NCBI GenBank assembly: GCA_965369655.1
Contig: CBDUQR010000028.1
Location: 1 to 38,455, forward strand
DNA length: 38,455 nt
Direction of reading: 5' to 3'
Origin: an uncultured bacterium
Lineage (GTDB): Bacteria > Zixibacteria > MSB-5A5 > JAABVY01 > JAHJOQ01
The notes beneath the pieces were generated by a model. That model was not told the origin of the DNA and did not search any database. It saw only the letters and a list, made by a program, of their open reading frames with translations. Positions 138 through 26,391 of the stretch are shown in pieces. Numbering within the stretch: the stretch's first letter is position 1; each line of letters opens with the position of its first letter. The translations under genes and the position numbers were made by a program.

Positions 138-3100
138 CTATTTTATGGCATTCCCGGTTATGACATCAGGCTCAACCGGGGCAGCAAGCGGTGGGTCCTC
201 GCAGGGAGCCGGACCGCCGCCAAAAATGTAATTGATCAGGTAAACCGCGTCGTCGATATCGACTTCGCCGGAGCAATCTGCATCACCAACTTCAAGCGGA
301 GACGGCGGCGGACCACTGGCGAAGATGTACTCTATCAGATAGACAACATCATCGATGTCGATCTCCCCGGAGCCGTCGCAGTCGCCGATCAACAAGAACT
401 CCTCGACAGTGATCAGGACATTCAGCGTGTCTTCGAGCTGTGTATCCGACGCGATGAATCGAACAGTGTATTCACCCGCCTGAGTCTCATCCGGCGTGAA
501 ATCGAATGTACCCGTTCCGTCGCCGTTATCGAGGAACGAAGCGTTTGTGGGAGGCATATTCTCGGCGCGCAGAGATGGTGTTGTGCCATTGGGATCCGAT
601 GCCTCAACCAGCAGATTGAGATTCTCGGTTTCCATTATGGTCTGTGGACCAATCTCTACTATGACCGGGGGTTGGTTGGCCGACCCACCGATCGTCATCG
701 TGACCGGTATCAGCTCCTCCGGATTCAACGGATCATTCGAGAGTATCCCCACCTGACCGGTGTAGACGCCGTCATCGAGATCGCCCGCGTTGCAGAGCAC
801 ATCTATCGTGTCACTACTGAATGGAGCGACAGTACCCGATTCCGGACCGGCAGACAGCCAGGAACTGTTGGAGAACTGAATCGTCAGGTAGTCGTGCATG
901 TATGTGGCATTGTAGACAGTGGTGAGACCGTCATCACCGACGGAATTCTCGATACCGACAGTAGCGCCAGCCAGCCCGGCGTTATCGTCGCCCGGATCCA
1001 TCACGCCGTACTGCAGTACGATCCGACCCGTTTGATACAGTATCGCCTGGAAAGTCAGCGAACCGGTGCCAGTCGGATACTGGTAGTTCCTGATACCGAC
1101 GAAGCTGACGATAAATCGGTTGTTGGCGGCATCATGATAGTAGTAGACATTGCCCGCCTCGGGTGGATCAAGGTCGTCCCACCACATGGAGATCAAGTTG
1201 TTAGGCTCTGGCGCATACGGCAGGTTGGAGTTTTGAGTCGTGGTGTAACCCTGACCGAATGTCAGGTATCCGTTCGAGTTGATGAATATCTCATTGAATG
1301 CACTCTCATAGAACGGGAACATGATGCCCATCGTGACCGGACCGACCCAGTTGTCATCATCGAGTATGACTTCCGTGCCGACAGTGGATATGTCGATCCA
1401 TTCGTACGTCGGACCGCCCGGTTCGTCCGAATCGATCCATGTATAACCGTAATTGTCGGGACCGCCGCTGCCTTTGTCTGCAGGCGCGAAGTACGGTTCC
1501 TCGACCTCGCCCTTGTCCGAATCTCCGGCGCGATAGCCTATCGGCTCGCGGACACCGGATAGCGTGAGTCCATCTCCGCGCATCGACTTGCCGCCCGGTA
1601 TCATGGCCGACTGTTTGTCAAACATCGTGACGCCTACCTCGAAATGCAGCAATCCGGGACCATTGTTATTGATCACCAGCGGTGCAGTCTCCTGCCCACC
1701 CGGATTGACGTACACATCGACGGATGCCTGCGGTACTTCGAATACCGGTGCGTAAACATGCAGGCCGACTGTAATACTCCCTGTCGGATTCTCCGGATCG
1801 TTGCAGTTGTAATCGAGAGTACCGACATAGTCGCCCGGTCCAATGCCGTCAGCATTGACTGTGAACGGACAGGACAGGTGACCGCCTGGCGGCACATCGT
1901 AGTTCTCCGACGAGCACTCTATCCAGCTCTCAGACGGTACAAACTGGATGCTCAGGCTGCCAATGCCGGTGTTGTCGAGATCGATCTGATGCTCGGACGT
2001 CTCGCCTTCGACAAGGCTGTCACCATAAACCATCTGTTCGATTTCGAGAACCGGCGGATGTATATAGACATTGATCGGCACGCTTCCGGTCATGCTACCC
2101 GGTATGTTCGTCGTGTACTGTAGCGTTCCTGAATTCATGCCCGAGTTCATGCCGTCGGTATCGATCGTGAACTCGAAGTCCAGACTGTCGTCCGGCGGAA
2201 TGTAGTTGTTGTCAGTATTGCAGGAAAGCCACGGATCGCCCGGACTGAAACGAATCCTGAGAGTTCCGTCGCCCGTGCTCCTGACACGAATGGCGCGTTG
2301 GACCACTTCCCCCTCGATCAGGCTGTCGACGAACACCGCAGGCTCGAGTTCCATTGCGGGCGTACCGCCCGAACCCTGGAAGTAGCCTTTCAGTTCGATA
2401 TCGTCGATGTTCCAACCGCCCCGTGTCACTGAACCATCAGTGCCACCCATTCCGAACCTGATCTTGAATTCAGGATTGAAATCGGCATAAGTGGACAGAT
2501 CATAGAAGTCTTCGTTCCACGATGTCTCCTGGAATGTGCCACCATTTTCCCATAGCGTGATCCAGGTCGAGCCGTCCCAAACCTGGAAGTAAGCGTGGTC
2601 ATATGACGAGGACTCGACCCCTGTCCAGTGCCAGTAGCGCATTTCGATGCTGGTGTAATCGGAGCAGTCGATGTTTGGTGATGTGATCCACTGGGTACCT
2701 GAAATGTTGTCGTTGTAATCGCCGCCGATGTCGTTTCCAAGAACCTCATTGCCTTCTGTCGGGCTGTGATCGAGTCCCGGATCGTTGGTGCTCGAAACCG
2801 CTGGACCCATTTCCCATTCTGCGGTGCCAGCAAGACCGGTCCAGCCCTGATCGAATGCGAAGTCGTCGTAGAAGAAAGCGACGCGATCACCGACAGTGAT
2901 CATTAGGTTCAGCGTCTCTGAATATCCAAGATCGCCGGTCAGGTCAAGCTGCATTACAACAGCATAACCCATCGGAGCGCTAGCGTCGGCTGAGACTGTG
3001 AACACATCGCCTGCGCCGTCAGCCGTTCCGCCATCGGGTGTGATCGTTCCGTAGACCACGGCATCATCCGAGATCGACAGGAACGGATCGGACTCCGAAA

Positions 3101-5675
3101 GCGTACCATTGACATTGCCTGCCTGGCCGCTGCCGGAGTTCTCGAGAGTGACGACGATATTGCCGGTCTCTCCCGGATCGAGTATGCCGTTGTTGTTGCC
3201 GGTGGCATCATCGATCGTGATGGCGAGATGAGTTACGACTGGCGCATGTACTGTCATATTGAAATGACTCTGCCAGAGATCCTTCGCCGTCCCCGAAACA
3301 TCCAGATCAAACGTTATTACGTGACCGTCTGACGCATCGGATGAAACGTCAAACGAGAATGCGTTCGCGCTGTATGCTGTGCCGTTGTCACCCGGGATGT
3401 CGCCGTAAGATTCGGTGTCGTCGGTCAGAGTCACTCTGGCGTCGTCCGTGAATAGTGTAGCGTCAACGCTGTACGCCATATCCGGGCCGACGTTCTTGAC
3501 CTGCACGCCGAGAATGATACTCTCGCCTGCATCGATGTCACCGTTGTTATTGCCCGCAACGTCGTTGATATCGCTGTAATCGTAGATTACGTATGGTCCC
3601 GATGGTGTGATGACCTGAATCGTCGAGATATATGGCTGACGATTCTGACAACTCACCACGATATCAGCTGTTCCGGGAGCAGTAAACTCCGTGATCGGCA
3701 CATCAACCGTACCTGAAACGCCAATATACGCCGCGCCCTTGAGTTCACCGTCGATCGATATGCCGACATACGAACCGGGATCAGCGCTGACTGAGACAGT
3801 AGTCGATGTCATCAGGATAGCATCCGCATGCACGACCGGATTGACCAACGGAACACCCATGTAGCTTATGACGGATGGATCACCCATCAGGTGATATATC
3901 TCCCAATAATACTGCTCCTTCGATGAGCCGGCCTCGGTTACAGCGAGATTCCCGCGGTAAGCAATTGAGTAGTTTGTAACATAGTGATCGGTTACAGGCT
4001 CGCCATGATCGTGGAAGATGCCGTCAAAAGCACCAAGGCCAGTCCCTTCGTAAGTTGGATTTGCACTAACAGGCCCATAACCAACGCCCCACCAGTAATC
4101 TTCATCCCAGTATGTAGAGTTTGTGCCACCGATGAAACCGATGCCACCCTTGTTCGGCTCCTGCAGCCAGACCTCGCCGAAGCAGGGTGTGCTGTAGTCG
4201 TCGCCGAAAGTGTTCGGCAGGCAGCAGTTGCCAATGGCGAGCAGCCACATGTGATTGTTCGTCAGGTTCTGAATGTCGCTTGTTGTGAACGATGGATTGC
4301 CCATTCCTGTATGGCCGCAATGTGCGGAGTAGTTGTAAAATCCGATTCCATCATTGACTGTCTGAATAATTGCAGCTGAGGCACCAGGTTCCTCACATTC
4401 CGGATCGAGCCAGACGTGTGGTTCGATTCCGTGAGCGAGATTGAAATAGTATGTTGTACCATAGTTGATCTGACCGTTACCCCAGGTCGGGGCATGACTG
4501 GCGTCGACGCCTGCAACCAGTGTCACCTCATCGAGGTAGCTCGGGTCTGGCATCAGATACTGTTCATACTCAAGCGTCTTGTCGATCTGTGGCTGAAGCA
4601 GTGTCGTGTTCTGAGCCGAGAACCTGCCGAAGTAAATCTCCGGGAACCAGTCGCCCGTGAACTCGACGAACTTCATGTCGGTGATGTGCGACCCGGCTGA
4701 TCCGCTCCAGGCCTGAATCTGCTGATCATCGCCGACGAACAGCACGAATGACGGCTTCACGCCGGGTTCATTGTACAGGTCCTGAATCCAGCCTTTGATT
4801 GCCGACTGCGAAGTACCGATCACGTCGGTATAACCGACTACGACATCGAAACCCTTCTTGACTTTCCACGCGATGAACTGCTGCAATTGAGTTTCGAACA
4901 TAGGATCCGACACGATAACATACTTGATCGGGTAAGTGACAAGATCATCCTTGCCGCTGCTGTACAGAGACTTATCGTAATTGATAATCCTGTTGTATGC
5001 CGGAGCAAACACCGGCGAGTAGTACTCGCGATGCATATACTCAGTCTTTGCCCAATCCGCATTCAGATAGTCAATTCTGACCTCCACTCTGGTGTAGATC
5101 CTGAGTTTGTTCTCTGTTGGATTGTACTCGAACGGGCATGTGTAAACCTGTCCGAGGCGTACATTACGCATGGTGCCTTTGACTTTCGATTCCGCCAACG
5201 GAAGCGAATACCATCCAGGCTGCTCGTACAGATCGCGATCGTACTCGAACGGGACGAGATCGGGATCATCCGACTTTGAGAGCGATGGCTGTACGGGTAT
5301 CAATGGCAGAGTGATCCCATAATCGGTCAACGAGAACTCTTCGTATTCAGATTCAATAACGGTCGTCTGCAACTCGCATCCGAATGGAATCGAGAGCAGC
5401 TTGTTGGCCATCGGAAGATTCGGTTCGCCGATCTGATGCGACCGTGAAAAGTTCTCGACCGATAAAACAATAAAGTCGCCCTCTTTGGTGGCGACTTCGG
5501 TAAGCATAACTTCCCCGACTTCGAGACGCAGCGTCAGGCCGTCACGGTCCTGATCAAGAAGCGTCACACCGGACTGGGAATCGCTCAGTGTGATTGTCTG
5601 AGTTGCATGAGCGTTGCCGACAATCAGCGCGAACGCAAACGCAAATACCAGAAGTGCGGTGGCTGACTTTCTCAC
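138..5675 (-). CDS. Secreted gingipain-like (C25, Kgp-like) cysteine protease: propeptide, catalytic domain, Ig-like and beta-sandwich domains, one cadherin-like repeat, C-terminal dockerin
   Basis: Signal peptide (MRKSATALLVFAFAFALIVGNAHA). Kgp-like motifs YNYSAHC, LAIGNCC, TYWDEDYWWGVG and YYWEIYHLMGDPS. Duplicated Ca-binding dockerin loops GDCDGSGEIDIDD and GDADCSGEVDIDD at the C terminus. GTG at 5675 follows GGAGG and is preferred over 5687. Confidence 0.88.
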   Translation of the reverse strand: MRKSATALLVFAFAFALIVGNAHATQTITLSDSQSGVTLLDQDRDGLTLRLEVGEVMLTEVATKEGDFIVLSVENFSRSHQIGEPNLPMANKLLSIPFGCELQTTVIESEYEEFSLTDYGITLPLIPVQPSLSKSDDPDLVPFEYDRDLYEQPGWYSLPLAESKVKGTMRNVRLGQVYTCPFEYNPTENKLRIYTRVEVRIDYLNADWAKTEYMHREYYSPVFAPAYNRIINYDKSLYSSGKDDLVTYPIKYVIVSDPMFETQLQQFIAWKVKKGFDVVVGYTDVIGTSQSAIKGWIQDLYNEPGVKPSFVLFVGDDQQIQAWSGSAGSHITDMKFVEFTGDWFPEIYFGRFSAQNTTLLQPQIDKTLEYEQYLMPDPSYLDEVTLVAGVDASHAPTWGNGQINYGTTYYFNLAHGIEPHVWLDPECEEPGASAAIIQTVNDGIGFYNYSAHCGHTGMGNPSFTTSDIQNLTNNHMWLLAIGNCCLPNTFGDDYSTPCFGEVWLQEPNKGGIGFIGGTNSTYWDEDYWWGVGYGPVSANPTYEGTGLGAFDGIFHDHGEPVTDHYVTNYSIAYRGNLAVTEAGSSKEQYYWEIYHLMGDPSVISYMGVPLVNPVVHADAILMTSTTVSVSADPGSYVGISIDGELKGAAYIGVSGTVDVPITEFTAPGTADIVVSCQNRQPYISTIQVITPSGPYVIYDYSDINDVAGNNNGDIDAGESIILGVQVKNVGPDMAYSVDATLFTDDARVTLTDDTESYGDIPGDNGTAYSANAFSFDVSSDASDGHVITFDLDVSGTAKDLWQSHFNMTVHAPVVTHLAITIDDATGNNNGILDPGETGNIVVTLENSGSGQAGNVNGTLSESDPFLSISDDAVVYGTITPDGGTADGAGDVFTVSADASAPMGYAVVMQLDLTGDLGYSETLNLMITVGDRVAFFYDDFAFDQGWTGLAGTAEWEMGPAVSSTNDPGLDHSPTEGNEVLGNDIGGDYNDNISGTQWITSPNIDCSDYTSIEMRYWHWTGVESSSYDHAYFQVWDGSTWITLWENGGTFQETSWNEDFYDLSTYADFNPEFKIRFGMGGTDGSVTRGGWNIDDIELKGYFQGSGGTPAMELEPAVFVDSLIEGEVVQRAIRVRSTGDGTLRIRFSPGDPWLSCNTDNNYIPPDDSLDFEFTIDTDGMNSGMNSGTLQYTTNIPGSMTGSVPINVYIHPPVLEIEQMVYGDSLVEGETSEHQIDLDNTGIGSLSIQFVPSESWIECSSENYDVPPGGHLSCPFTVNADGIGPGDYVGTLDYNCNDPENPTGSITVGLHVYAPVFEVPQASVDVYVNPGGQETAPLVINNNGPGLLHFEVGVTMFDKQSAMIPGGKSMRGDGLTLSGVREPIGYRAGDSDKGEVEEPYFAPADKGSGGPDNYGYTWIDSDEPGGPTYEWIDISTVGTEVILDDDNWVGPVTMGIMFPFYESAFNEIFINSNGYLTFGQGYTTTQNSNLPYAPEPNNLISMWWDDLDPPEAGNVYYYHDAANNRFIVSFVGIRNYQYPTGTGSLTFQAILYQTGRIVLQYGVMDPGDDNAGLAGATVGIENSVGDDGLTTVYNATYMHDYLTIQFSNSSWLSAGPESGTVAPFSSDTIDVLCNAGDLDDGVYTGQVGILSNDPLNPEELIPVTMTIGGSANQPPVIVEIGPQTIMETENLNLLVEASDPNGTTPSLRAENMPPTNASFLDNGDGTGTFDFTPDETQAGEYTVRFIASDTQLEDTLNVLITVEEFLLIGDCDGSGEIDIDDVVYLIEYIFASGPPPSPLEVGDADCSGEVDIDDAVYLINYIFGGGPAPCEDPPLAAPVEPDVITGNAIK

Positions 5676-5916
5676 TTCTCCCTCCACATAGTAATAGTGT
5701 TGCTGTTATGTCTGTTCTTATTTCTCAAATTTGAGCACCATCCATCAGCAAGGTGAGGACAGCACGGATATGACCGCGAAAACGCAGATTCCTTTTATTA
5801 TAAGCACAAATCTCAGAAAAGAAAGCGAAATTTTGACTATTTCACCTATTTTGGAGTAATATAGTCGATTATGTGAAGTAATTGATCCGTATTCGATTGC
5901 TGACGGGGTAAAGTAA

Positions 5917-16805: not shown

Positions 16806-16892
16806 GTCATCGCGAGGAGCGTAGCGACGTGGCGATCTCAGTTCCTATAACACTCAAACATACTGAGATTGCTTCGCTTCGCTCGCAATGAC
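16806..16892. repeat. REP doublet of GTCATYGCGAG type
   Basis: GTCATCGCGAGGAGCGTAGCGACGTGGCGATCTCAGT ... ACTGAGATTGCTTCGCTTCGCTCGCAATGAC; related copy at about 26468-26585. Confidence 0.7.
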
Positions 16893-16965
16893 AATGCAGT
16901 GGATTTCTCAGCGCGTATTAAAAGTTGCCACAATCCTGTGTACTTCTTATCATCACAGGACAATT

Positions 16966-18504
16966 ATGCATCAAAATAACAACAATTCATTGCACGGGAA
17001 CCTCAAGAGAACAATCGGCCTGATCGCAGGTCCCGTTGCTGCCGTGTGCATCCTGTTATTCTTCGATCTTGATCCGGACAATCTGCTTGTGACACGCACT
17101 GCGGCTGTCGCGCTCTTGATGGCGATCTGGTGGATCACCGAGGCGATCCCGATTCCGGCGACCGCACTGCTTCCGGTTGCGCTGTTTCCGCTTCTCGGTA
17201 TCATGAACGGCAAATCTGTCGCATCGACATATTTCAACAACATCATCTCCCTGTTCATCGGTGGATTCATCATGGCGCTCGCGATGCAGAAATGGAATCT
17301 GCACCGGCGCATCGCACTCAGAATCATGCTGCTGATCGGCACCAGCCCGAAGCGGATCATACTCGGATTCATGGTTGCAACTGCATTTCTTTCGATGTGG
17401 ATATCCAATACCGCCACGACCATGATGATGGTGCCTATCGCGATGGCGATCATCATCAAACTCAGGGAGACCGTCAATAGTGACGCCGTGTCGCGCTTCT
17501 CGGTCGCGCTGCTGATTAGCATCGCGTATTCAGCATCGATAGGCGGCATCGCGACACTGATCGGCACTCCGCCCAATCTGTCGTTCACTCGGATTTTCAA
17601 TATCTATTTCCCGAACGCTCCCGACATCACATTCGCGGGATGGTTCACCTTTGGGCTGCCCTGCTCGGTCTTGTTTCTGCTGATCGCATGGCTGCTGATA
17701 ACAACATTCTTCATACCGAAAAAGCGTGCCATGACCGCCGATGCCAGAGTGTTCCGCGATGAGTACAGTCGCCTCGGCAGGATGTCCTACGAGGAGAAGC
17801 TGGTGCTCGTCCTGTTCGTGATAATGGCGTTGTTGTGGCTGCTCAGGAAAGATATCAATGTCGGATGGTTCGCGATCCCCGGATGGTCATCGATCCTGCC
17901 GGTACCGAAATTCATCGATGATGGCACTATCGCTATCGTGATTTCGCTGCTGCTGTTCGTGATTCCGTCACGGTCGAGGAAGCGCGGCAGGTTGATGAAC
18001 TGGGAAACAGCGTCGAAACTGCATTGGGGCATAGTGATACTTTTCGGTGGTGGATTCGCGCTGGCGAGCGGATTCAAGGAGTCCGGCCTGTCGGTATGGG
18101 TAGCCGAGCAGCTTGCCGGACTTGGAGACACCTCGCCGGTCTTTCTCGTTGCATCGATTTGCACGATGCTGACATTCCTGACCGAGTTGACCTCGAATAC
18201 TGCCACTACCGAGATGATCCTCCCGCTTCTCGGATCGCTTGCGGTTGCGATCAAGGTGAATCCGTTGCTCCTGATGATCCCGGCGACACTGTCGGCGTCA
18301 TGCGCGTTCATGCTGCCGGTCGCGACGCCACCGAATGCGATTGTGTTCGGTTCGGGCGAGATCAAAATGTCCGACATGGTACGCATCGGCATAATCATGA
18401 ATCTAATCGGCGTCATCCTGATCACATCAGCGATCTACCTGCTCGGCCTAACGGTCTTCAACATCGATCTCGGACAGATGCCGGAATGGGCCGTGTCGAG
18501 TTAG
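16966..18504 (+). CDS. SLC13/DASS family sodium:dicarboxylate or sulfate symporter
   Basis: WWITEAIP, SMWISNTAT, IGTPPN, ELTSNTAT and FMLPVATPPNAIVF motifs. ATG 16966 follows AGGA; the 16888 ATG lies inside a REP. Confidence 0.92.
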   Translation: MHQNNNNSLHGNLKRTIGLIAGPVAAVCILLFFDLDPDNLLVTRTAAVALLMAIWWITEAIPIPATALLPVALFPLLGIMNGKSVASTYFNNIISLFIGGFIMALAMQKWNLHRRIALRIMLLIGTSPKRIILGFMVATAFLSMWISNTATTMMMVPIAMAIIIKLRETVNSDAVSRFSVALLISIAYSASIGGIATLIGTPPNLSFTRIFNIYFPNAPDITFAGWFTFGLPCSVLFLLIAWLLITTFFIPKKRAMTADARVFRDEYSRLGRMSYEEKLVLVLFVIMALLWLLRKDINVGWFAIPGWSSILPVPKFIDDGTIAIVISLLLFVIPSRSRKRGRLMNWETASKLHWGIVILFGGGFALASGFKESGLSVWVAEQLAGLGDTSPVFLVASICTMLTFLTELTSNTATTEMILPLLGSLAVAIKVNPLLLMIPATLSASCAFMLPVATPPNAIVFGSGEIKMSDMVRIGIIMNLIGVILITSAIYLLGLTVFNIDLGQMPEWAVSS

Positions 18505-18686: not shown

Positions 18687-19337
18687 ATGATAGAGATATT
18701 ATAAGCAATCGGCATTCCCGCCATCGTTATGGTTCTCGCCATTGCTGTGGGTGTCTTCTTAAGGGAACTCTGGCCTCTGTTTGCGGCGAATCGGCTACAG
18801 GCAGTGCAGGCAGTTCAGAACCGCGTTATTGAGCAATACGAACGACAGATAGAGGAATTCTACCTCCCTCTACGGCAACGATTTCTTCTGTCGCAACTCT
18901 TGCACGAAACTACTAATGACTGGATGATTGAACGTGCATACACAAACGATGCGCTAAACGTGCAGTCAGATGATCCGAGAGCACTCCGAAAGATCGTTGT
19001 TCGAGGGATGTTCATGCCGTGCAATCGCGACATCCAGGAACTCATCCTCAATAAGAGCCACCTCAAGGCAGACTATGATGAGGCGCGATATGAGGTCATT
19101 CTTCGTCACTTTGTGATTTGGAGTAACCTTGAATCTGCCTTGGAGAACGGAAGCATCGTAGACTACGATGCAAGCCACATCCTCAGTTTTCCAGATGAGG
19201 AGGTGCGAAAGCACCATCTGGCGTGCGATCAATTGCTCGATGAAAGAGACGAGTTGTTAAAGCGAATGCAGACCGTGGCATGGACTGCATATCGTAGCAG
19301 ATACCATCGTAACGGAAAAAAAGGAGAACCAACATGA
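18687..19337 (+). CDS. Hypothetical membrane-anchored protein; in-frame TAA at codon 6 (open frame from 18729)
   Basis: GGAGAG, then ATG 18687 MIEIL*AIGIPAIV, in frame with the 18729 ORF (MVLAIAVGVF...ERQIEEFYLPL). Confidence 0.65.
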
Positions 19338-19725: not shown

Positions 19726-19813
19726 GTCAATGTGTATAGCCTCATAGGATGGAGTAAGACGATTAGCGGTGTCACAAAAATCTAACCGTGCAGCGGAAGT
19801 CAGGAGGAACAAT

Positions 19814-20674
19814 ATGTTGCCAAAAAAGACGCAGTTCGCGGATGCTCGCAGGAAAGCCAAAACTGCAAAGCAAGCTTCCGAACGTGGTGCGGAGAAACGA
19901 ACCCAATTTGTCGACCAATACGATATCGGCTTCTCACTGGCATTAAATGAGGCTATCAACCTCCTTTGTAAGATGCGTCCCGCCCAGAACAAGCTTGCAG
20001 TTGACGCATCGCTGTTCGGGCTTGTAGGTCTCGTTGCTTTAGGGACTATCAGTATGGGCATCGAGCAACGAATGAAGATGCATCTTGTACTACAGAGCTA
20101 CCAGTCTGTCAATGCATTTGTGAACGCACAAGCCACTCAGCGCATGGCGAACATGTTCGGATTGCACCTTGTCCATGGCTTCAGAAAGGTCCCCGAAGAG
20201 AAGGTCGTCGACCACGTTAGGATGGCGCTCGAAGGTAGAGGAGATTCACTACTAAAAAGAGCATTTAAGAAAAAGAAGAACAACATCTTGGTTTGGGATG
20301 CTGGCTTCTTGGAGGAGCTTGAGTTAGCAGTTAATCTCTATGACTACGGTCGGGAAATCATCTGGCAGCCTGCTTTTGTAGTCACAGTTCTCTCAAACCC
20401 CAGTTCCTACTATAAAGGCAGTCTTTCCGTGACTCCGGAAATGAAAAGGCTGAACTTTGCTAAGAAAAGAAAGCCAGTGATGGCTTGCTTCGAGTGCATT
20501 GCATCTGCGTGTTTTTTCTCAAAGGAAGGGCTTCTGGTACCGTGGAATGCAATCGGTCGTTTCTTGAATCGCACGGCGGGTCCAGACGCAGGTGAAAGGC
20601 GGATCGCTGCCTTGAAAAAGGTTTATGAGAATCTTCCCGATACCACCGAAATACCGTTTGTTGACAAACTGTAA
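19814..20674 (+). CDS. Hypothetical protein
   Basis: Long ORF with basic N terminus; AGGAGG before ATG 19814 (alternative GTG 19769); no recognisable family. Confidence 0.65.
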   Translation: MLPKKTQFADARRKAKTAKQASERGAEKRTQFVDQYDIGFSLALNEAINLLCKMRPAQNKLAVDASLFGLVGLVALGTISMGIEQRMKMHLVLQSYQSVNAFVNAQATQRMANMFGLHLVHGFRKVPEEKVVDHVRMALEGRGDSLLKRAFKKKKNNILVWDAGFLEELELAVNLYDYGREIIWQPAFVVTVLSNPSSYYKGSLSVTPEMKRLNFAKKRKPVMACFECIASACFFSKEGLLVPWNAIGRFLNRTAGPDAGERRIAALKKVYENLPDTTEIPFVDKL

Positions 20675-20761
20675 GATAGTCATGATATGTGAGAGCTAGC
20701 CGGTAACCCACCCAAAGCGTAAGCATCAGGTGATTCCACATACCATCTTTTGAACTAACAA

Positions 20762-20794
20762 GAGAGCCGACCGTCTTATCATCGGTCGGCCCTC
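20762..20794 (-). terminator. Terminator-like hairpin closing the putative ncRNA (possibly bidirectional)
   Basis: Minus strand: GAGGGCCGACCG-N9-CGGTCGGCTCTC followed by TTGTT. Confidence 0.6.
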
Positions 20795-20987
20795 GAGGGA
20801 GAGAAGTAAATACCTCCGACCCGCCCCTTGGGGAGCAGAACGTGTCCGCTCCCCATGGTACTGTGTTGCGAAACGCTACCGCAACGGGGCGTTACTCTTT
20901 GGTTGAACCAGCATTTCTGCCGGGTTCTGTATCGCTGGCAGCTTGATTCCTCACAGCCTCGCACCGATTATGTGGCGGCAGACATCC

Positions 20988-21132
20988 CGAAGTTATCCCC
21001 TAAGTGCAAATCAACTTGAGCGGTAAGCTGATTCTGTCACTCCCGCGCAGGCCCTTCGCTTTGCTCAGGATACCACGGGAGTCCATTTAACGTTAACGCA
21101 TTCAATAGATTCCCGCCTTCGCGGGAATGACA
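20988..21132 (-). mobile_element. Degenerate partial copy of the 6894-7092 MITE
   Basis: The reverse complement of 21033-21132 nearly matches 6949-7048, and similarity continues to a decayed TIR (TTAGGGGATAACTTC). The other TIR is not found. Confidence 0.7.
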
Positions 21133-21806
21133 CTCCTGGAGGTCTGTCAGTCACGGCGCAAGCATCCATCACCGTTTGTCATCTCTCTTTAGGGAGGCAC
21201 GCCCGATCCTCGAACTCCGGGACATGCCTCTCCTCACGGACAGAGCTGCCGAGACCTGACTGCACTCTCGACCGTTCAATCAAGAAACAGTCGGTCCCGA
21301 CCTGAGCAATTCCCCCCTCAGGGATAACCTTGGTGAGATTGGTGCTTGAAAGGCCGTTTGGTTACCGCTACCACCTCCTTCCGGCAGAACTATTACGGTC
21401 TGCACATAAGGTTACTTTCAACTGTTCAATCTGAATGATGCTTTGGTCTCACTCGAACAGTTGTTCTAACAACGGTAGCGGTATCTGGTAAGTCGTCTTC
21501 CTCGTTTCACCCGCATATCTGCGGGAAGGATTTCTATCTTACCGTAGCGATATGGTGAGCTGTACTCTCTCCAGTCGTTCGTTCAACCAGCCTGAATACA
21601 TGATTCAGGCAACTCAGATAAGCACAGTATCAGTGGATGGGCTGCTTACTTAATCCTCCTGTCGGCGTTGATAGCCGCTTTAGGAAAACTCACTCACAAT
21701 CACAGTAGCAAACAGCTAAATAGAAGAACACCTTCTTTGAAAAACGAGAGCTTTAATACAGTAACAATGAAGTTATCGAGCGGTCAGTCTCCTTTCAGAC
21801 TGCTCA

Positions 21807-21835
21807 AGTATAATACAGACGTTCCTGTTTGTCAA
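21807..21835 (-). promoter_or_regulatory. Strong sigma70 promoter firing leftward into the ORF-free region
   Basis: TTGACA (21835-21830), 17-nt spacer, TATACT (21812-21807). A divergent TTGCGC-17-TATATT lies at 21852-21880 on the plus strand. Confidence 0.8.
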
Positions 21836-21960
21836 GCCCGTTTTTGCTCCTTTGCGCAAGTTTCTTTATTATGCTATATTCGTGTGAATAGGCGCATTCG
21901 CACATACGGCGCCTGACGAACGAAAGGTCGAATTCTTGAGAGCTATCTACTGGTTTCTGT

Positions 21961-22378
21961 CGCACATTGTCGTACGACGCTGAGCCGGGGGTGGTTCGCT
22001 GACACCAGCGCTCTTCTTCGATCGCGGCTCATCGACCGAACGCTTTTGATAAAAAATCCTTCTCCACGGTCAACTGGCCGATCTTCGCGTGCAGGTCCTT
22101 GATCTCGGCGTCCCGGGCCGTATCACCAACGGCGGCCTTCCGGGAGAATAACTCAGGGAGACTCTCCTGGATCCGGCGCTTCCACTGCGAGATCATATTG
22201 GGATGCACGCCATGCCTGGCCGAAAGCTCGGACATCGTGTGCGCACTGGAAAGCGCATCAAGCGCAACACGGGCTTTGAATTCGGCGGAAAAGCTGCGTC
22301 GCTTTCTCATTCTGTTGATCCTCCCAAAAACTCTCTAATCCACCTTAATCAACTGTCCGAAATTCTGCAACCACCTCT
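21961..22378 (-). mobile_element. Truncated IS3-family element (left end, orfA, first ~24 codons of orfB)
   Basis: End sequence AGAGGTGGTTGCAGAATTTCGGACAG; ATGA-coupled orfB start MSRDRRRALVSANHPRLSVVRQCA stops abruptly; no DDE domain. Confidence 0.85.
22029..22310 (-). CDS. IS3-family transposase OrfA
   Basis: RRSFSAEFKARVAL, HTH (ELSARHGVHPNMISQWK), LHAKIGQLTVEKDFL; GGGAGG RBS. Confidence 0.92.
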   Translation of the reverse strand: MRKRRSFSAEFKARVALDALSSAHTMSELSARHGVHPNMISQWKRRIQESLPELFSRKAAVGDTARDAEIKDLHAKIGQLTVEKDFLSKAFGR

Positions 22379-22485: not shown

Positions 22486-23847
22486 ATGACGTTTGAATTC
22501 GAAGAAATACTCGAGACGCTGCACATGACCGAGGTCGAGTGTCTCGATGTGCGGACTGTCACGATGGGCATCTCCCTCAGAAGCTGCTCGCGCGGCTCGA
22601 TCGACGAAACCTGCGCGGCGATTCGTTCAAAGATACTCGAGAGGTCTGAGAAGCTTGTCGAGACTGTCGATCGGATCAAGGTCGAGTTCGGTATCCCAAT
22701 CGCCAACAAGCGCATATCGATAACGCCCGTTTCTCTTCTCGGCGGGGTGTTTTCATCAGATGATTTCGTGAAAGTCGCTCTCACGCTCGATCAGGTCGCA
22801 GCCGACGTCGGCGTCGATTATCTGGCTGGGTACTCCGCTCTCGTCCAGAAGGGTTATGCCGACAATGACCGCAGTCTGATTTCATCCATCCCGGATGCTC
22901 TCGCCGCCACCAAGCGCGTCTGCTCGTCGGTCAATGTTGCAACGACCAAGGCCGGGATCAACATGGATGCTGTCAGACAGATGGGCGAGGTTGTCTGTAA
23001 AACAGCTCAGAATACCGCTTCCGATGGTGGCATCGGCTGTGCGAAACTGGTGACATTCGCCAATGTCCCCGAGGACAACCCGTTTGTTGCAGGCGCACTC
23101 CATGGCGTCTCCGAGCCGGAGTGCGTTATAAATGTCGGCATATCAGGTCCGGGCGTGATCCTGCATGCTGTCGAACGATTTCCGGATGCTGATTTCGGGA
23201 CTCTTGCAGAGGTCATCAAGCGAACAGCATTCAAGGTGACCCGGATGGGCGAAATGGTCGGGCGCAAAGTCTCGCGCGAACTTGGGGTCGAGTTCGGTAT
23301 TGTCGATCTTTCGCTGGCCCCCACTCCGGCAGCGCGCGACAGCGTTGCCAGAATACTGGAAGCAATAGGTGTCGAACGCTGCGGCGCCCACGGCACAACT
23401 GCGGCACTCGCGATGCTCAACGATAATGTGAAGAAAGGCGGCATGATGGCGTCGTCGTACGTCGGCGGCATGTCGGGAGCCTTCATACCTGTGTCCGAAG
23501 ATGCCGGCATGATCGAGGCTGTGAAGATCGGCGCTCTCTCCATCGAGAAACTGGAGGCGATGACCGCCGTCTGCTCGGTTGGACTCGATATGGTAGCCGT
23601 TCCGGGCGACACCCCCCCTGAGACCATCGCGGGCATAATCGCCGATGAGGCTGCGATTGGCGTCATCAACAACAAAATAACTTCTGTCAGGATAATACCG
23701 GTACCCGGCAAGAAAGTGGGAGAGTCTGTCATATACGGCGGCTTACTTGGAGAAGCGCCTATTATGGATGTCTCACGATTCTCCTGCGAAAGACTTATCC
23801 GTCGTGGTGGTCGCATACCGGCGCCGACTCAGGGACTCAATAACTAA
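22486..23847 (+). CDS. PFL-like family protein (DUF711/UPF0210)
   Basis: [66 protein letters not shown] and RGGRIPAP. Confidence 0.92.
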
Positions 23848-23904: not shown

Positions 23905-25482
23905 TCAGGATTCGTTCTGCTGTGAGAATGCAGTATCGAGGAGAGATTCGACTTCCTGACCGCGTGCCGCGTTGAGCTTTTCCATCAGCATAGCCTTCTC
24001 GATTGCGATTTCGGCCTGGCTGAGGATTGTCTGCGCCGACTCCAGCTTTCCTTCATCGATGGGCTCATCCGAATCCGGGCTCGACAGCAGTATCACCATA
24101 CCGATTTCATCATTGACCTGGATCGGCAGCAGCGCAAAGGCGCTTGAATTGATGACTTCGAGTTCTACAGGATCACGGTCAGAATCATATATCTTCGAGG
24201 GGGCGTCGAGCACGTTTACAGGGCTGCCATTCGCCACGACTGCTCTGATGAATCCAACGGAGTCCTTAATCTCAATCTGCATACGGCGCACCTGATCCTG
24301 GGATTGTACGCCGAAACCTAACATCCCACGTGCGATGGAGCTCTCTTTGTCGATTTCGAACAGGATGGCCCGACCCATTTCGAACCCGCGGAAGATGCTT
24401 TCGAGGACGATCTGGAGTATTTCGCCCACGCTTCCCGCCTGCCTGATGCACTCCGATGCTTCCCGAAGCACCGACAGTTGTCGCTCTCTGCTGCTGAGTT
24501 GTTCTGACATCTGCTGCATCTCGACAGTGATTTCTGCAGGCGATGGACCAAATGGATGCACCACTCCGTTTTCAGGCGAGCCACCGATCGTGTCTGCAGC
24601 CGCCGCGTTCTCGATACAGATGCCCAGCTCTGAGGAGATATCGAGAATGCTGGGCCAGGCGTTAGCCGCTATTGCGTCTATCGCCTCCGCCGGAATTCCC
24701 GCCAATGTTTCTGCCTCCTTATAGATGTTGCTTGAACGGTCGATCTCGTTGTTCCCTTCACGCACTTCCCCGAAGAGTCTGTGTGCCAGGTAGATTATAT
24801 CAACCAATCTCGATTTGCTCTTTATTCCGAGTGATATTCCGACTCTGTGATGGAACTGGATCGGTGAAAGAAGCTGCGACGGCATGTTCCATTTTCTGCC
24901 GAGCCAGTGTCCGAGGGCGCAGTGGTCGGTGCCGATCAGATCTCTCTCGGTCGAGATATCGTCTTCTCCGGCCTCAATCAGCTTGTCGATTCTTGAATAT
25001 TCTGTTCTGAACACCTGACTTATGACCACCTTGCCGATGTCATGGATGAACCCGGCGATGAACGCCTCTTCCGGGATCCTGTACCGACATGCTTTCGCCA
25101 GGAGTTTGCCGATTATGCCGCACCCGAGTGACTTGGTCCAGAAGCGCTTGAAATCGAAATCTTTGATACTCTTTGAACTGGTGAAAGTGTCGTGTATGGC
25201 TATGCTCATCACCACATTCCTGACCGTCCGGAAACCCATCAGCACGATTGCCTGAGTGACAGTGCCGACCTTTCCCGAAAACTCCGCGTAGTAGGCGGAG
25301 TTGGCGAGCTTGAGTATTCTTGTCGTGAGGTGGTGATCGCTCAGGACGATATTCGCCAGGTCAGCCGCAGACGATTTCGGATCTTCGGATATCTCCTTGA
25401 CGCGGATGATGATCTCGGGCACCGATGGGATGCTTGCCGAAAACCCCTCCAGCTTTTCTTTGATTCTTTCGTCTGTGATCAT
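23905..25482 (-). CDS. HDOD domain protein with C-terminal GAF domain
   Basis: RILKLANSAYY, QAIVLMG, AFIAGFIHDIGK and IGTDHCALG..W; GAF-like region (RAILFEID, FALLPIQV). Confidence 0.88.
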   Translation of the reverse strand: MITDERIKEKLEGFSASIPSVPEIIIRVKEISEDPKSSAADLANIVLSDHHLTTRILKLANSAYYAEFSGKVGTVTQAIVLMGFRTVRNVVMSIAIHDTFTSSKSIKDFDFKRFWTKSLGCGIIGKLLAKACRYRIPEEAFIAGFIHDIGKVVISQVFRTEYSRIDKLIEAGEDDISTERDLIGTDHCALGHWLGRKWNMPSQLLSPIQFHHRVGISLGIKSKSRLVDIIYLAHRLFGEVREGNNEIDRSSNIYKEAETLAGIPAEAIDAIAANAWPSILDISSELGICIENAAAADTIGGSPENGVVHPFGPSPAEITVEMQQMSEQLSSRERQLSVLREASECIRQAGSVGEILQIVLESIFRGFEMGRAILFEIDKESSIARGMLGFGVQSQDQVRRMQIEIKDSVGFIRAVVANGSPVNVLDAPSKIYDSDRDPVELEVINSSAFALLPIQVNDEIGMVILLSSPDSDEPIDEGKLESAQTILSQAEIAIEKAMLMEKLNAARGQEVESLLDTAFSQQNES

Positions 25483-25491
25483 CCCGATCCG

Positions 25492-26391
25492 CTACTCTTC
25501 AAACAGGTATTTTTCGGATTGATAGGCCTCGTCGAGTTCTTCCACAAGATTGTCGATATCAATCTGCCCGAATCCGGCGATCTGTGCCAGCGGCAATGAC
25601 GTAAGATCGTCGAGACGTCGATCATTAAATCCGCAATCGATCTGTTTGGCCAACTCGTTGCAAAACTGCGTGATGAACGCAATCGGGACATTCGACGCAA
25701 CGAGGCGCTCCGTATCGGCGTCGTCATCATGCCTGGGATCATGGTGATTCGAGATGGCCGACGTCAGCATCGACGGGAAATTCCATCTTTCAAACAGAAG
25801 CCTGCCGACTTCGACATGCCCGAAGCCGAGTTGTTCGGTCTCAACCTCCATGAACGTCAGGCTTTCCGATTCCACCTGCCTGCAGACCAATTCATACTGC
25901 TCCGAGAGTTTTTGCGAGAGAATGAGCTTGCCTAAGTCGTGCATCAATCCAACGATAAACGCCTCCTCGATTTGTGGATGCCTGATTTTCCTGGAGATGA
26001 TTCGGCTCGCCATGGCAGTCGCGAGCGAGTGCTCCCACAGCCTCTGTTCCACGTAACTCTCGTTTTTCTTCTTGAAAAGGCTGTGTGTCGATGATGCCAC
26101 GACGAGTGATCGGAGAGTGTAGAACCCGAGGATCAGGATAGCCTCCTTCAGCGTTCCGACACCCTTCGGTCGCCCATAAAACGATGAATTCGACAGCTTC
26201 AGGACCTTGGCGGACAACGCCTGGTCGGCTGAAAGGACCTTGCCGAGCTGTGCGACGTCCGTGTCCAGATTGCTGGTGAGTCCCATCACAGTGGAGACGA
26301 TAGCGGGCGAAGCTGGCAGTTCGCCCATAGTTGATATGATCTTAGCGACAATTGGATTCGAATCGACGGCCTGAGTATCTTGCATTTTCAA
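25492..26391 (-). CDS. HDOD domain protein
   Basis: ELPASP, DQALSAKVLKLSNSSFYG, AFIVGLMHDLGK and GFGHVEVG..L.ERWNFP. Confidence 0.9.
   Translation of the reverse strand: MKMQDTQAVDSNPIVAKIISTMGELPASPAIVSTVMGLTSNLDTDVAQLGKVLSADQALSAKVLKLSNSSFYGRPKGVGTLKEAILILGFYTLRSLVVASSTHSLFKKKNESYVEQRLWEHSLATAMASRIISRKIRHPQIEEAFIVGLMHDLGKLILSQKLSEQYELVCRQVESESLTFMEVETEQLGFGHVEVGRLLFERWNFPSMLTSAISNHHDPRHDDDADTERLVASNVPIAFITQFCNELAKQIDCGFNDRRLDDLTSLPLAQIAGFGQIDIDNLVEELDEAYQSEKYLFEE

Follow-up and report, generated by a model that had tools for sequence, protein, structure and literature searches.

The question raised by this locus is what is encoded between positions 20762 and 21835 of the window, that is, of the whole 38,455-nucleotide stretch of Zixibacteria DNA analysed here. 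An earlier note, made from the letters of the DNA, had proposed that the minus strand encodes a structured noncoding RNA of about 1 kb with its own promoter and terminator. The comparison with related genomes argues, with considerable confidence, for a genuine structured noncoding RNA gene. The fuller statement, that this is a stand-alone gene for a large structured noncoding RNA, that the RNA belongs to an uncatalogued family limited to one family of Zixiibacteriota, and that it acts as a scaffold, is held as a whole with moderate confidence.

Transcription unit and coding potential

The proposed promoter, TTGACA followed after 17 nt by TATACT, was recovered by a promoter scan. The -35 hexamer is located at 21830-21835 and the -10 hexamer at 21807-21812, both on the minus strand, and together they match the sigma-70 consensus at 11 of 12 positions. 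TTGACA is kept in all seven aligned copies of the RNA gene. In the relatives the -10 hexamer is TATACT, TATAAT or TATTAT, and the spacing is 16-18 nt. The transcription start is inferred to lie near 21800 on the minus strand.

At the other end, the terminal hairpin proposed at 20762-20794 (minus strand) is complementary at 12 of 14 positions and is followed by a U-rich tail, as in an intrinsic terminator. Its eight-pair core helix covaries: 98% of the cells of the alignment are paired, and five of the eight pairs are changed on both sides. The tail is UUUU-rich among the relatives. A simple terminator scan of the window did not list this hairpin, because its loop has 9 nt and its tail is only moderately T-rich. 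The promoter (TTGACA and the -10 hexamer) and the terminator are present in every copy. These two conserved elements bound the whole predicted transcript (20755-21802, minus strand), and the RNA gene would be transcribed independently. The span of about 1,045 nt agrees with the proposed length of about 1 kb; however, some 160 nt of it belong to an inserted repeat. The homologues are 823-898 nt long, and the window stretch as cut for the comparison is 1,056 nt long.

The claim that no credible reading frame follows the promoter was borne out. On the RNA strand between 20762 and 21805, no open reading frame exceeds 61 aa, and each sense frame contains 16-19 stop codons. In all six full-length sequences, at least six stops were found in each of the six frames. 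Stop-codon reassignment would rescue no frame, because all three stop types occur. No three-base periodicity of substitutions was detected among the homologues. A protein-coding or recoded gene is ruled out by the stops in all six frames and the lack of codon periodicity. A decayed protein gene, which the earlier note had also considered, is likewise disfavoured: no decayed frame was found in any homologue.

Homologues and conserved fold

The genome containing the window (G000; 100 contigs, 99.5% complete) was compared with G001 from the same genus and with G002-G005 from four other genera, all of one family of Candidatus Zixiibacteriota, designated f1. In a blastn search of a 41-genome sample of relatives, all five other f1 genomes matched outside the inserted repeat. 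The search with nhmmer suggested in the earlier note also gave matches in all five. With the single sequence as query, two blocks (query positions about 81-779 and about 1017-1219) aligned in the four other genera. The E values for the 5'/central block and the 3' block, respectively, were 1e-30 and 5e-12 in G003, 9e-25 and 1e-11 in G005, 1e-19 and 1e-13 in G004, and 2e-18 and 8e-5 in G002. The 3' domain is 86% identical between the G000 and G001 species, and the differences are found mostly in loops and linker stretches (alignment A4).

An exact two-block motif pattern was searched in 185,579 species genomes. It gave three true loci, two labelled Candidatus Zixiibacteriota and one labelled "uncultured Ignavibacteria", and one chance match in Bradyrhizobium. 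In metagenome contigs four matches were due to chance and two were true loci: L037, which is related to G002 at 76.5% identity, and L040, a match to G003. When three mismatches were allowed, the pattern was useless, because the reversed control matched at about the same rate. It should be mentioned that a 48-nt sequence, GGAGGTGAGAAGGAGTTTAGGAGAAGAGGCTTAAACGTTCAACCACCA, lies within three mismatches of the pattern; with close variants it occurs once per genome in many genomes of the f5 family (e.g. L098 and L101), and it is unrelated to the RNA.

With R1, a covariance model built on the 3' domain, the scores in G000-G004 were 101-146 bits. Across 151 genomes of a phylum sample, R1 recovered all four sampled f1 genomes with 101-139 bits. 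Nine R1 matches outside f1 (21-26 bits) were rejected as ordinary terminators, which on inspection had no further similarity. An nhmmer profile of the whole RNA, applied to 30 kdtA loci, matched five, all from f1. A search of viral contigs with two motif patterns gave no match. Within the genomes searched, the RNA appears to be restricted to f1.

The overall identity of the RNA between genera is 44-54%, so that outside the conserved elements the sequences are close to saturation, and the KdtA proteins of the same genomes are 45-52% identical. At such a KdtA distance, unconstrained intergenic DNA would not be expected to align. The RNA contains invariant blocks of 7-11 nt, and GGAGGUGGUA, UUCAAGCACCA and ACAGUAC are identical throughout the sequences compared.

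The helices listed in the earlier note are all complementary in the window: 21363-72/21474-83 (10 bp), 21419-27/21455-63 (9 bp), 21487-92/21538-43 (6 bp), 21510-15/21520-25 (6 bp), 21590-97/21603-10 (8 bp) and 21194-204/21219-30 (11 bp). As to their covariation, the closing helix of the central subdomain, the 3' junction and the terminator covary, whereas two proposed pseudoknots found no support. The pairing of 21333-38 with 21447-52 (6 bp) occurs only in the two G000 copies, that is, in the window and in a partial copy on contig C48. It was rejected because all relatives use the strand concerned, UCUCAC, for pairing with the conserved GUGAG at 21233-37. The pairing of 21325-31 with 21408-14 covers 7 bp in the window and is again limited to the two G000 copies; elsewhere only two to five of the seven positions are complementary.

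The central subdomain (21363-21483, minus strand) is closed by the long-range helix 21474-83/21363-72, which has 11 pairs in the family and 10 bp in the window. In this helix 96% of the cells are paired and two pairs are changed on both sides; the duplex energies in the seven copies range from -13.8 to -21.3 kcal/mol. The purine-rich, Shine-Dalgarno-like GGAGGUGGUA (21369-21378, minus strand), identical in all six full-length sequences, runs into the 3' strand of the closing helix. It is followed by the strand CCUUUCAAGCACCA (21340-21353, minus strand), whose UUCAAGCACCA portion is the part that never varies. The central junction (21228-21343, minus strand) is formed by a helix between CAAUCUCAC (21333-41) and GUGAGG (21232-37). 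This helix encloses the conserved GGCAGCUCUGUCC (21238-21250) and two hairpins, a small one (CCCU/GGGG) and a long variable one (about 21251-21299). The junction helices (helices 4-7) are paired in 75-91% of the cells. Five of the six closing-stem pairs of the long variable hairpin are changed on both sides, and single-sequence folds give this hairpin in all copies. A further hairpin, GAGGCAUGUCCC...GGGCGUGCCUC (21194-21230, minus strand), has 11 bp in the window. A hairpin folds at this position in all six full-length sequences, with stems as unlike as GGCAUG/CAUGCC and GGGCGC/GCGCCC.

The RNAalifold consensus of the central domain (alignment A2) contains 42 pairs, and 89.5% of the cells are standard pairs, vs 34-48% after the partners had been shifted by 1-3 columns. 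Changes on both sides affect 14 pairs, vs one to five in these slid controls. Of 500 shuffles, none was as high on four of the five measures; on the fifth, the number of further pair types, 275 shuffles matched the observed value. The fold z value is -3.14 for 21185-21802 and -5.55 for the repeat-free G003 RNA, with none of 20 shuffles as stable in either case. The two G000 copies differ at 59 aligned columns, of which 49 are unpaired, two are compensatory, six are one-sided with the pair kept, and none breaks a pair; this count leans towards structure, because the fold came from the same two sequences. RNAalifold also gave two long-range pairings, of the first UACUGU motif with ACAGUAC and of the second with GCGGUAGC. 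Neither covaries, and the latter competes with the better-supported hairpin Pb of the 3' domain.

The 5' end forms hairpin P1 (21785-21802, minus strand; CAGUCU/AGACUG with the loop GAAAGG), which is predicted in five of the seven copies. Its stem differs by copy: GUCU/AGAC, UGCU/AGCA, CACU/AGUG and GUUC/GAAC. The invariant central strand contains a sequence complementary to the loop, CCUUUC. The loop variants GAAAG, GAGAG and GGAGG show only A-to-G changes, which lie opposite U's, and pairing stays possible. The loop probably docks on this strand as a tertiary contact; this remains an inference, because the partner strand never varies. P1 is followed by the variable 5' domain (21484-21784, minus strand) with the local hairpins 21590-97/21603-10 and 21510-15/21520-25. 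In the latter, a compensatory change from C-G to U-A is observed between the two G000 copies. Five UAC-N-G motifs, at 21763, 21707, 21629, 21546 and 21477, have counterparts at matching places in the homologues. In most copies the second and third of these motifs pair with strands further downstream, and most of the motifs are explicable as helix strands.

The 3' domain comprises the terminator and a junction at 20822-20891 (minus strand). The multi-stem junction proposed in this region turned out to be a three-way junction of Pa (20886-91/20822-27), Pb (20880-85/20865-70) and Pc (20846-54/20830-38). The invariant ACAGUAC lies within it at 20858-64. The domain has 29 pairs, and 92.1-92.6% of the cells are paired vs 43-55% in slid controls. 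Nine pairs are changed on both sides vs zero to three; refitting the alignment to the model did not alter this. All cells of Pc (100%) are paired, and three of its pairs are changed on both sides. Folding each of the six sequences alone recovered the three-way junction every time. Between the junction and the terminator lies the nearly invariant pyrimidine tract UUCUCUCCCUC (20795-20805, minus strand), which is partly complementary to the central purine tract, without covariation.

These motifs and tracts also suggest another explanation, in which the RNA is a trans-acting regulatory RNA or sponge. Its single strands and motifs would titrate a protein, the anti-Shine-Dalgarno end or mRNAs, and the body would be a display frame. 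The recurrence of the five UAC-N-G motifs at corresponding positions is consistent with this. So are the Shine-Dalgarno-like purine tracts GAAAGGAG and GGAGGAGGU, which are invariant or nearly so, the pyrimidine tract UCUCUCCC and the display of GAAAGG in the P1 loop. However, most of the motifs can be accounted for as helix strands, as described above, and when the genome was searched for sequences complementary to the invariant strand, a single 15-nt match was obtained, on contig C8. This match is no target site, because it is on the sense strand. The sponge explanation is considered unlikely. The match itself (G000:C8:17263-17277) is identical in sense to the invariant strand (TCAAGCACCAATCTC, minus strand) and adjoins a tRNA gene. 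It lies about 240 nt upstream of a gene whose G001 orthologue directly follows the RNA terminator. About 0.05 such matches are expected by chance and the flanks have no further similarity; it is probably a chance match or a relic.

The central and 3' domains are joined by a variable linker (20897-21193, minus strand), which is poorly alignable and differs in length from genus to genus. The inserted repeat (approximately 20975-21137, minus strand) sits in this linker, the least conserved part of the RNA, close to the segment 20988-21150 that the earlier note had proposed to mask. It resembles REP or MITE (miniature inverted-repeat transposable element) sequences and has 64 other blastn matches in G000. 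It is modular, with common ends at 21076, 21036 and about 20975, and is absent from the homologues of the four other genera. The repeat does not seem to be part of the ancestral RNA. The latter would be about 160 nt shorter than about 1,040 nt, because 20975-21137 is a genome-wide repeat. The linker tolerates an insertion of 160 nt and therefore marks a dispensable region. The G001 contig begins about 16 nt past the point corresponding to the repeat, which suggests that the repeat is also present in G001 and broke the assembly there. The repeat gives a weak Rfam FtrB match (32.5 bits vs a gathering score of 66). Copies of its core hairpin, GTCATTCCCGCGAAGGCGGGAATC, that are 93-100% identical occur in genomes of other families of the class.

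Position beside kdtA and history of the locus

In G002-G005 and in the C48 copy, the RNA gene is head to head with kdtA-lpxK-nadB-guaA. Its adjacency to kdtA is stable in four genera, and the site beside kdtA is taken from this comparison to be the ancestral position. Downstream of the RNA terminator, the genes vary by genome and are often convergent; in several genomes a DASS-family transporter follows after a variable stretch.

The neighbourhood of kdtA-lpxK, genes of lipopolysaccharide (LPS) synthesis, could be explained if the sequence were a cis-acting leader or antitermination region with GGUAGC motifs like those of ops/JUMPstart. Besides the conserved neighbour kdtA, the decamer GCGGUAGCGU in the 3' domain (L014:1490-1519; window 20871-20883) is in accord with this: it is the ops/JUMPstart core, common to both, and the Rfam JUMPstart model aligns to it in the G003 copy (17.3 bits, E 0.81). 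However, this score is far under the gathering score of 35, and JUMPstart is not among the window matches at E<=10. In G002 and L037, A replaces the motif's central U. The motif forms part of a hairpin, and the RNA that contains this hairpin is terminated. Furthermore, the RNA is transcribed away from kdtA, the wrong orientation for a leader of this gene, by which this explanation is largely refuted. A conserved strong terminator ends the RNA and the genes beyond it vary. A single NusG-family gene was found in the genome, and no RfaH-like paralogue. A leader is the least probable of the explanations weighed here. The conserved strong promoter, the terminator and the changing downstream genes instead indicate a stand-alone, trans-acting RNA.

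In G000 the locus is split. A second copy (C48:8547-9300; L002/L025), beside kdtA, contains the promoter and about 600 nt, corresponding to the 5' two-thirds. It is 90.9% identical to the window from 21967 to 21218 and unrelated beyond. The identity is about 88% in the 5' domain, and only three differences are found in about 290 nt of the central domain. After the break in C48, there is an antisense ORF of 95 aa resembling a zinc ribbon. Upstream of the promoter in the window, 21842-21967 (minus strand) is duplicated kdtA-side intergenic DNA, whose C48 counterpart abuts the kdtA start. Outside the RNA, the flank carries orfA of an IS3-type transposase (22029-22310, minus strand; 93 aa; HTH_Tnp_1, E 3e-12). 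The roughly 60 nt after orfA read like the start of orfB, cut exactly at the duplication boundary 21967. C48 keeps kdtA and the first 600 nt or so, and the window keeps the full RNA and the transporter. The window copy would thus be the full-length gene that keeps the ancestral downstream DASS transporter after a rearrangement leaving an IS3 remnant. The second copy includes flanking kdtA-side DNA, and a rearrangement is therefore indicated, not transposition of the RNA.

The two copies in G000, one of them beside an IS3 remnant, and the narrow distribution might also be explained by a relic. The sequence would then derive from a selfish or mobile element (an ORF-less intron or a retroelement RNA, for instance) or from a decayed protein gene, conserved only by recent descent. 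The variable island with a defence-like gene pair that follows the terminator in G003 fits such an origin. On the other side, the second copy is a segmental duplicate with its kdtA-side flank and not a transposed unit, and four genera have kept the kdtA-adjacent position. None of the group I and group II intron models matches, the two motif patterns matched no viral contig, and neither a reading frame nor codon periodicity is present. Neutral DNA at 44-54% identity would lose the promoter, the terminator, the invariant blocks and the compensatory pairs. A relic is therefore judged very improbable, only slightly less so than a leader.

Several further features of the surroundings were observed. 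Between the RNA terminator and the DASS transporter, each genome carries a different stretch, apparently a hot spot for insertions. The transporter of the window is encoded at 16888-18504 (Na_sulph_symp); the two window ORFs in this stretch, 18729-19337 and 19769-20674, have no Pfam or PADLOC match. In L040, the relative of G003, a gene pair directly 3' of the RNA terminator (L040:764-2562) matches PADLOC HEC-01A/B; the models are AriA/AbiLi-like ATPases (E 8e-35 and 3e-5), and the pair is defence-like. On the other side of the RNA gene, two adjacent HDOD-domain genes, one with GAF and one with HD, occupy 23905-26391 (minus strand) and adjoin a DUF711 gene at 22486-23847. A very long ORF of 1,849 aa lies at 138-5687 (minus strand).

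Relation to known RNAs and possible function

The comparison with Rfam 15 (4,227 models), which the earlier note had called for, gave no match at the gathering score anywhere in the window and none at E<=1 in the 18,174 nt of five homologous loci. The models of GOLLD, ROOL, OLE, HEARO, raiA and the group I and group II introns are presumably part of this release. At E<=10 only short sub-threshold matches were found: besides those of FtrB on the inserted repeat and of JUMPstart, given above, they were NsiR4 (20.3 bits vs 40) and the hairpin ribozyme (14.3 bits vs 65; E 8.3, opposite strand). The suggestion of a large structured RNA, possibly of a new family, is thus supported by the lack of an Rfam 15 match, the covarying helices and the homologues in all five other f1 genomes. 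A literature search found no description of this RNA; supplementary files lay outside that search, and the result is not proof of absence. As rated from sequence, this is an uncatalogued RNA family in the size class of OLE, ROOL and GOLLD.

The earlier note had not recognised the element as RNase P RNA, tmRNA or a group II intron, and no such model matches in the window. RNase P RNA was rejected as a candidate: the genome's own is encoded at G000:C84:1538-1893 (285.9 bits). The signal recognition particle (SRP) RNA is also encoded elsewhere in G000 (66.2 bits). ARAGORN found no tmRNA in the window. It found none in the 99.5%-complete G000 either, where RF00023 gave only tRNA-sized matches; this lack is likely an assembly gap. 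G001-G004 carry a canonical tmRNA (180-197 bits, one at a contig edge) alongside the RNA homologue, and the RNA is therefore no tmRNA replacement. 6S RNA was not found in G000 with a model that is insensitive (five of 14 control genomes matched). A group II intron, including ORF-less or permuted forms, was rejected on the lack of any intron model match at E<=10 in the window region and the G003 copy, the lack of a frame and the fixed kdtA position. Like RNase P RNA, tmRNA and SRP RNA, the Zixibacteria RNA is independently transcribed, as predicted here, structured and conserved by covariation; however, it matches none of their models and is confined to one family.

Catalysis was also considered, the RNA then being a ribozyme of an undescribed class with the invariant junction nucleotides as its active site. 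The large size, the multi-domain architecture with long-range helices and the concentration of invariant nucleotides in junctions and single strands of an otherwise fast-evolving RNA would fit such a ribozyme. However, the same features fit non-catalytic large RNAs. There is no similarity to an Rfam ribozyme beyond the 14-bit hairpin-ribozyme match (E 8.3) on the opposite strand, and no processing site, substrate or mobile context was found. This makes a ribozyme quite improbable, more so than a sponge.

OLE RNA is associated with the oapA, oapB and oapC genes and occurs in Bacillota. The Zixibacteria RNA resembles it as a stand-alone bacterial noncoding RNA of several hundred nucleotides with many helices interspersed with highly conserved nucleotides. 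It differs in that it matches no Rfam model, is longer (820-900 nt) and comes from a Gram-negative-type Zixibacterium with kdtA, not from Bacillota. According to PMC9723947 and PMC12054373, OLE RNA has about 600 nt and belongs to a ribonucleoprotein complex. In PMC12286853, it is described as forming an RNA dimer, and ROOL and GOLLD as forming homo-oligomeric, RNA-only cages via conserved intermolecular contacts; the linker of ROOL is described there as disordered and little conserved. These large RNAs are also described in PMC12265935. ROOL and GOLLD are similar to the Zixibacteria RNA in size class, ornateness, conserved long-range or tertiary contacts and a poorly conserved internal linker. 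This likeness concerns size and layout, the Zixibacteria RNA being known here from its sequence. They differ in that no covariance model matches and no phage or prophage context is seen; the RNA gene is chromosomal with the fixed neighbour kdtA.

The fast-evolving helices, invariant junction strands, long-range closing helices and dispensable linker match those of ornate RNAs, and for this reason a scaffold particle is favoured. A messenger, a simple antisense RNA and a cis-regulatory leader are all considered less likely. In the proposed model, P1 and the variable 5' domain would open the transcript. The central domain, closed by its 11-bp long-range helix, would carry the invariant single strands, and the dispensable linker would join it to the 3' three-way junction and the terminator. 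Docking of the P1 loop GAAAGG on CCUUUC would tie the 5' end to the core. The resulting compact particle might work in trans, either as a scaffold for protein partners or as a self-assembling RNA, as for OLE, ROOL and GOLLD. Action in trans as a folded scaffold particle, by an RNA-protein complex or self-assembly, is proposed tentatively on the basis of this analogy. It is somewhat doubtful, and a little less likely again, that the RNA founds an ornate large RNA class, the first from Zixibacteria, as a compact self-assembling or protein-organising machine or a ribozyme, not a regulator of neighbouring genes; the invariant junction strands and the contact between loop and strand would then build the particle, which would have its own function.

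Several points weigh against the reading given at the outset. The transcript is a prediction, and the RNA is known here from DNA. In the blastn sample, 35 genomes of other families matched only on the hairpin of the inserted repeat. The whole-RNA profile matched neither the kdtA locus of G001 nor any of the 24 kdtA loci from other families, in which the gene directly upstream of kdtA is lpxB or another one. In the 146 non-f1 genomes, R1 found no true homologue. Within f1 itself, only the 3' 210 nt were found in G001, at a contig edge (nhmmer E 3.5e-43). Given its narrow distribution, the RNA may be a young lineage-specific element of minor importance.

As for the fold, the variable 5' domain aligns poorly across the homologues, several motif pairings are absent in G004, and P1 is weak in two copies, G002 and L037. 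Both the contact of the P1 loop and the pairing of the purine and pyrimidine tracts rest on invariant or transition-only positions and are not proven. Covariation cannot reach formal significance, because there are only about six independent lineages. The shuffle control ignores kinship, and related sequences can beat shuffles without structure. With respect to function, no conserved neighbouring protein gene that would point to a partner was found, and protein binding or self-assembly of the RNA is suggested by analogy.

The biological reach of the RNA may be small, because it is confined to one family. Within that family, the three invariant blocks mark the probable functional core, and the promoter and terminator define the transcript for experiments. 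To our knowledge, very few noncoding RNAs of bacteria exceed about 500 nt and have a conserved, intricate fold, and each of the large bacterial RNAs studied (ribosomal RNAs, RNase P, group I and group II introns, OLE, ROOL and GOLLD) showed unusual biochemistry or architecture. With a further, unrelated class of large RNA from an uncultured phylum, cryo-EM (electron cryomicroscopy), RNA structure prediction and the discovery of function would all gain a new target.

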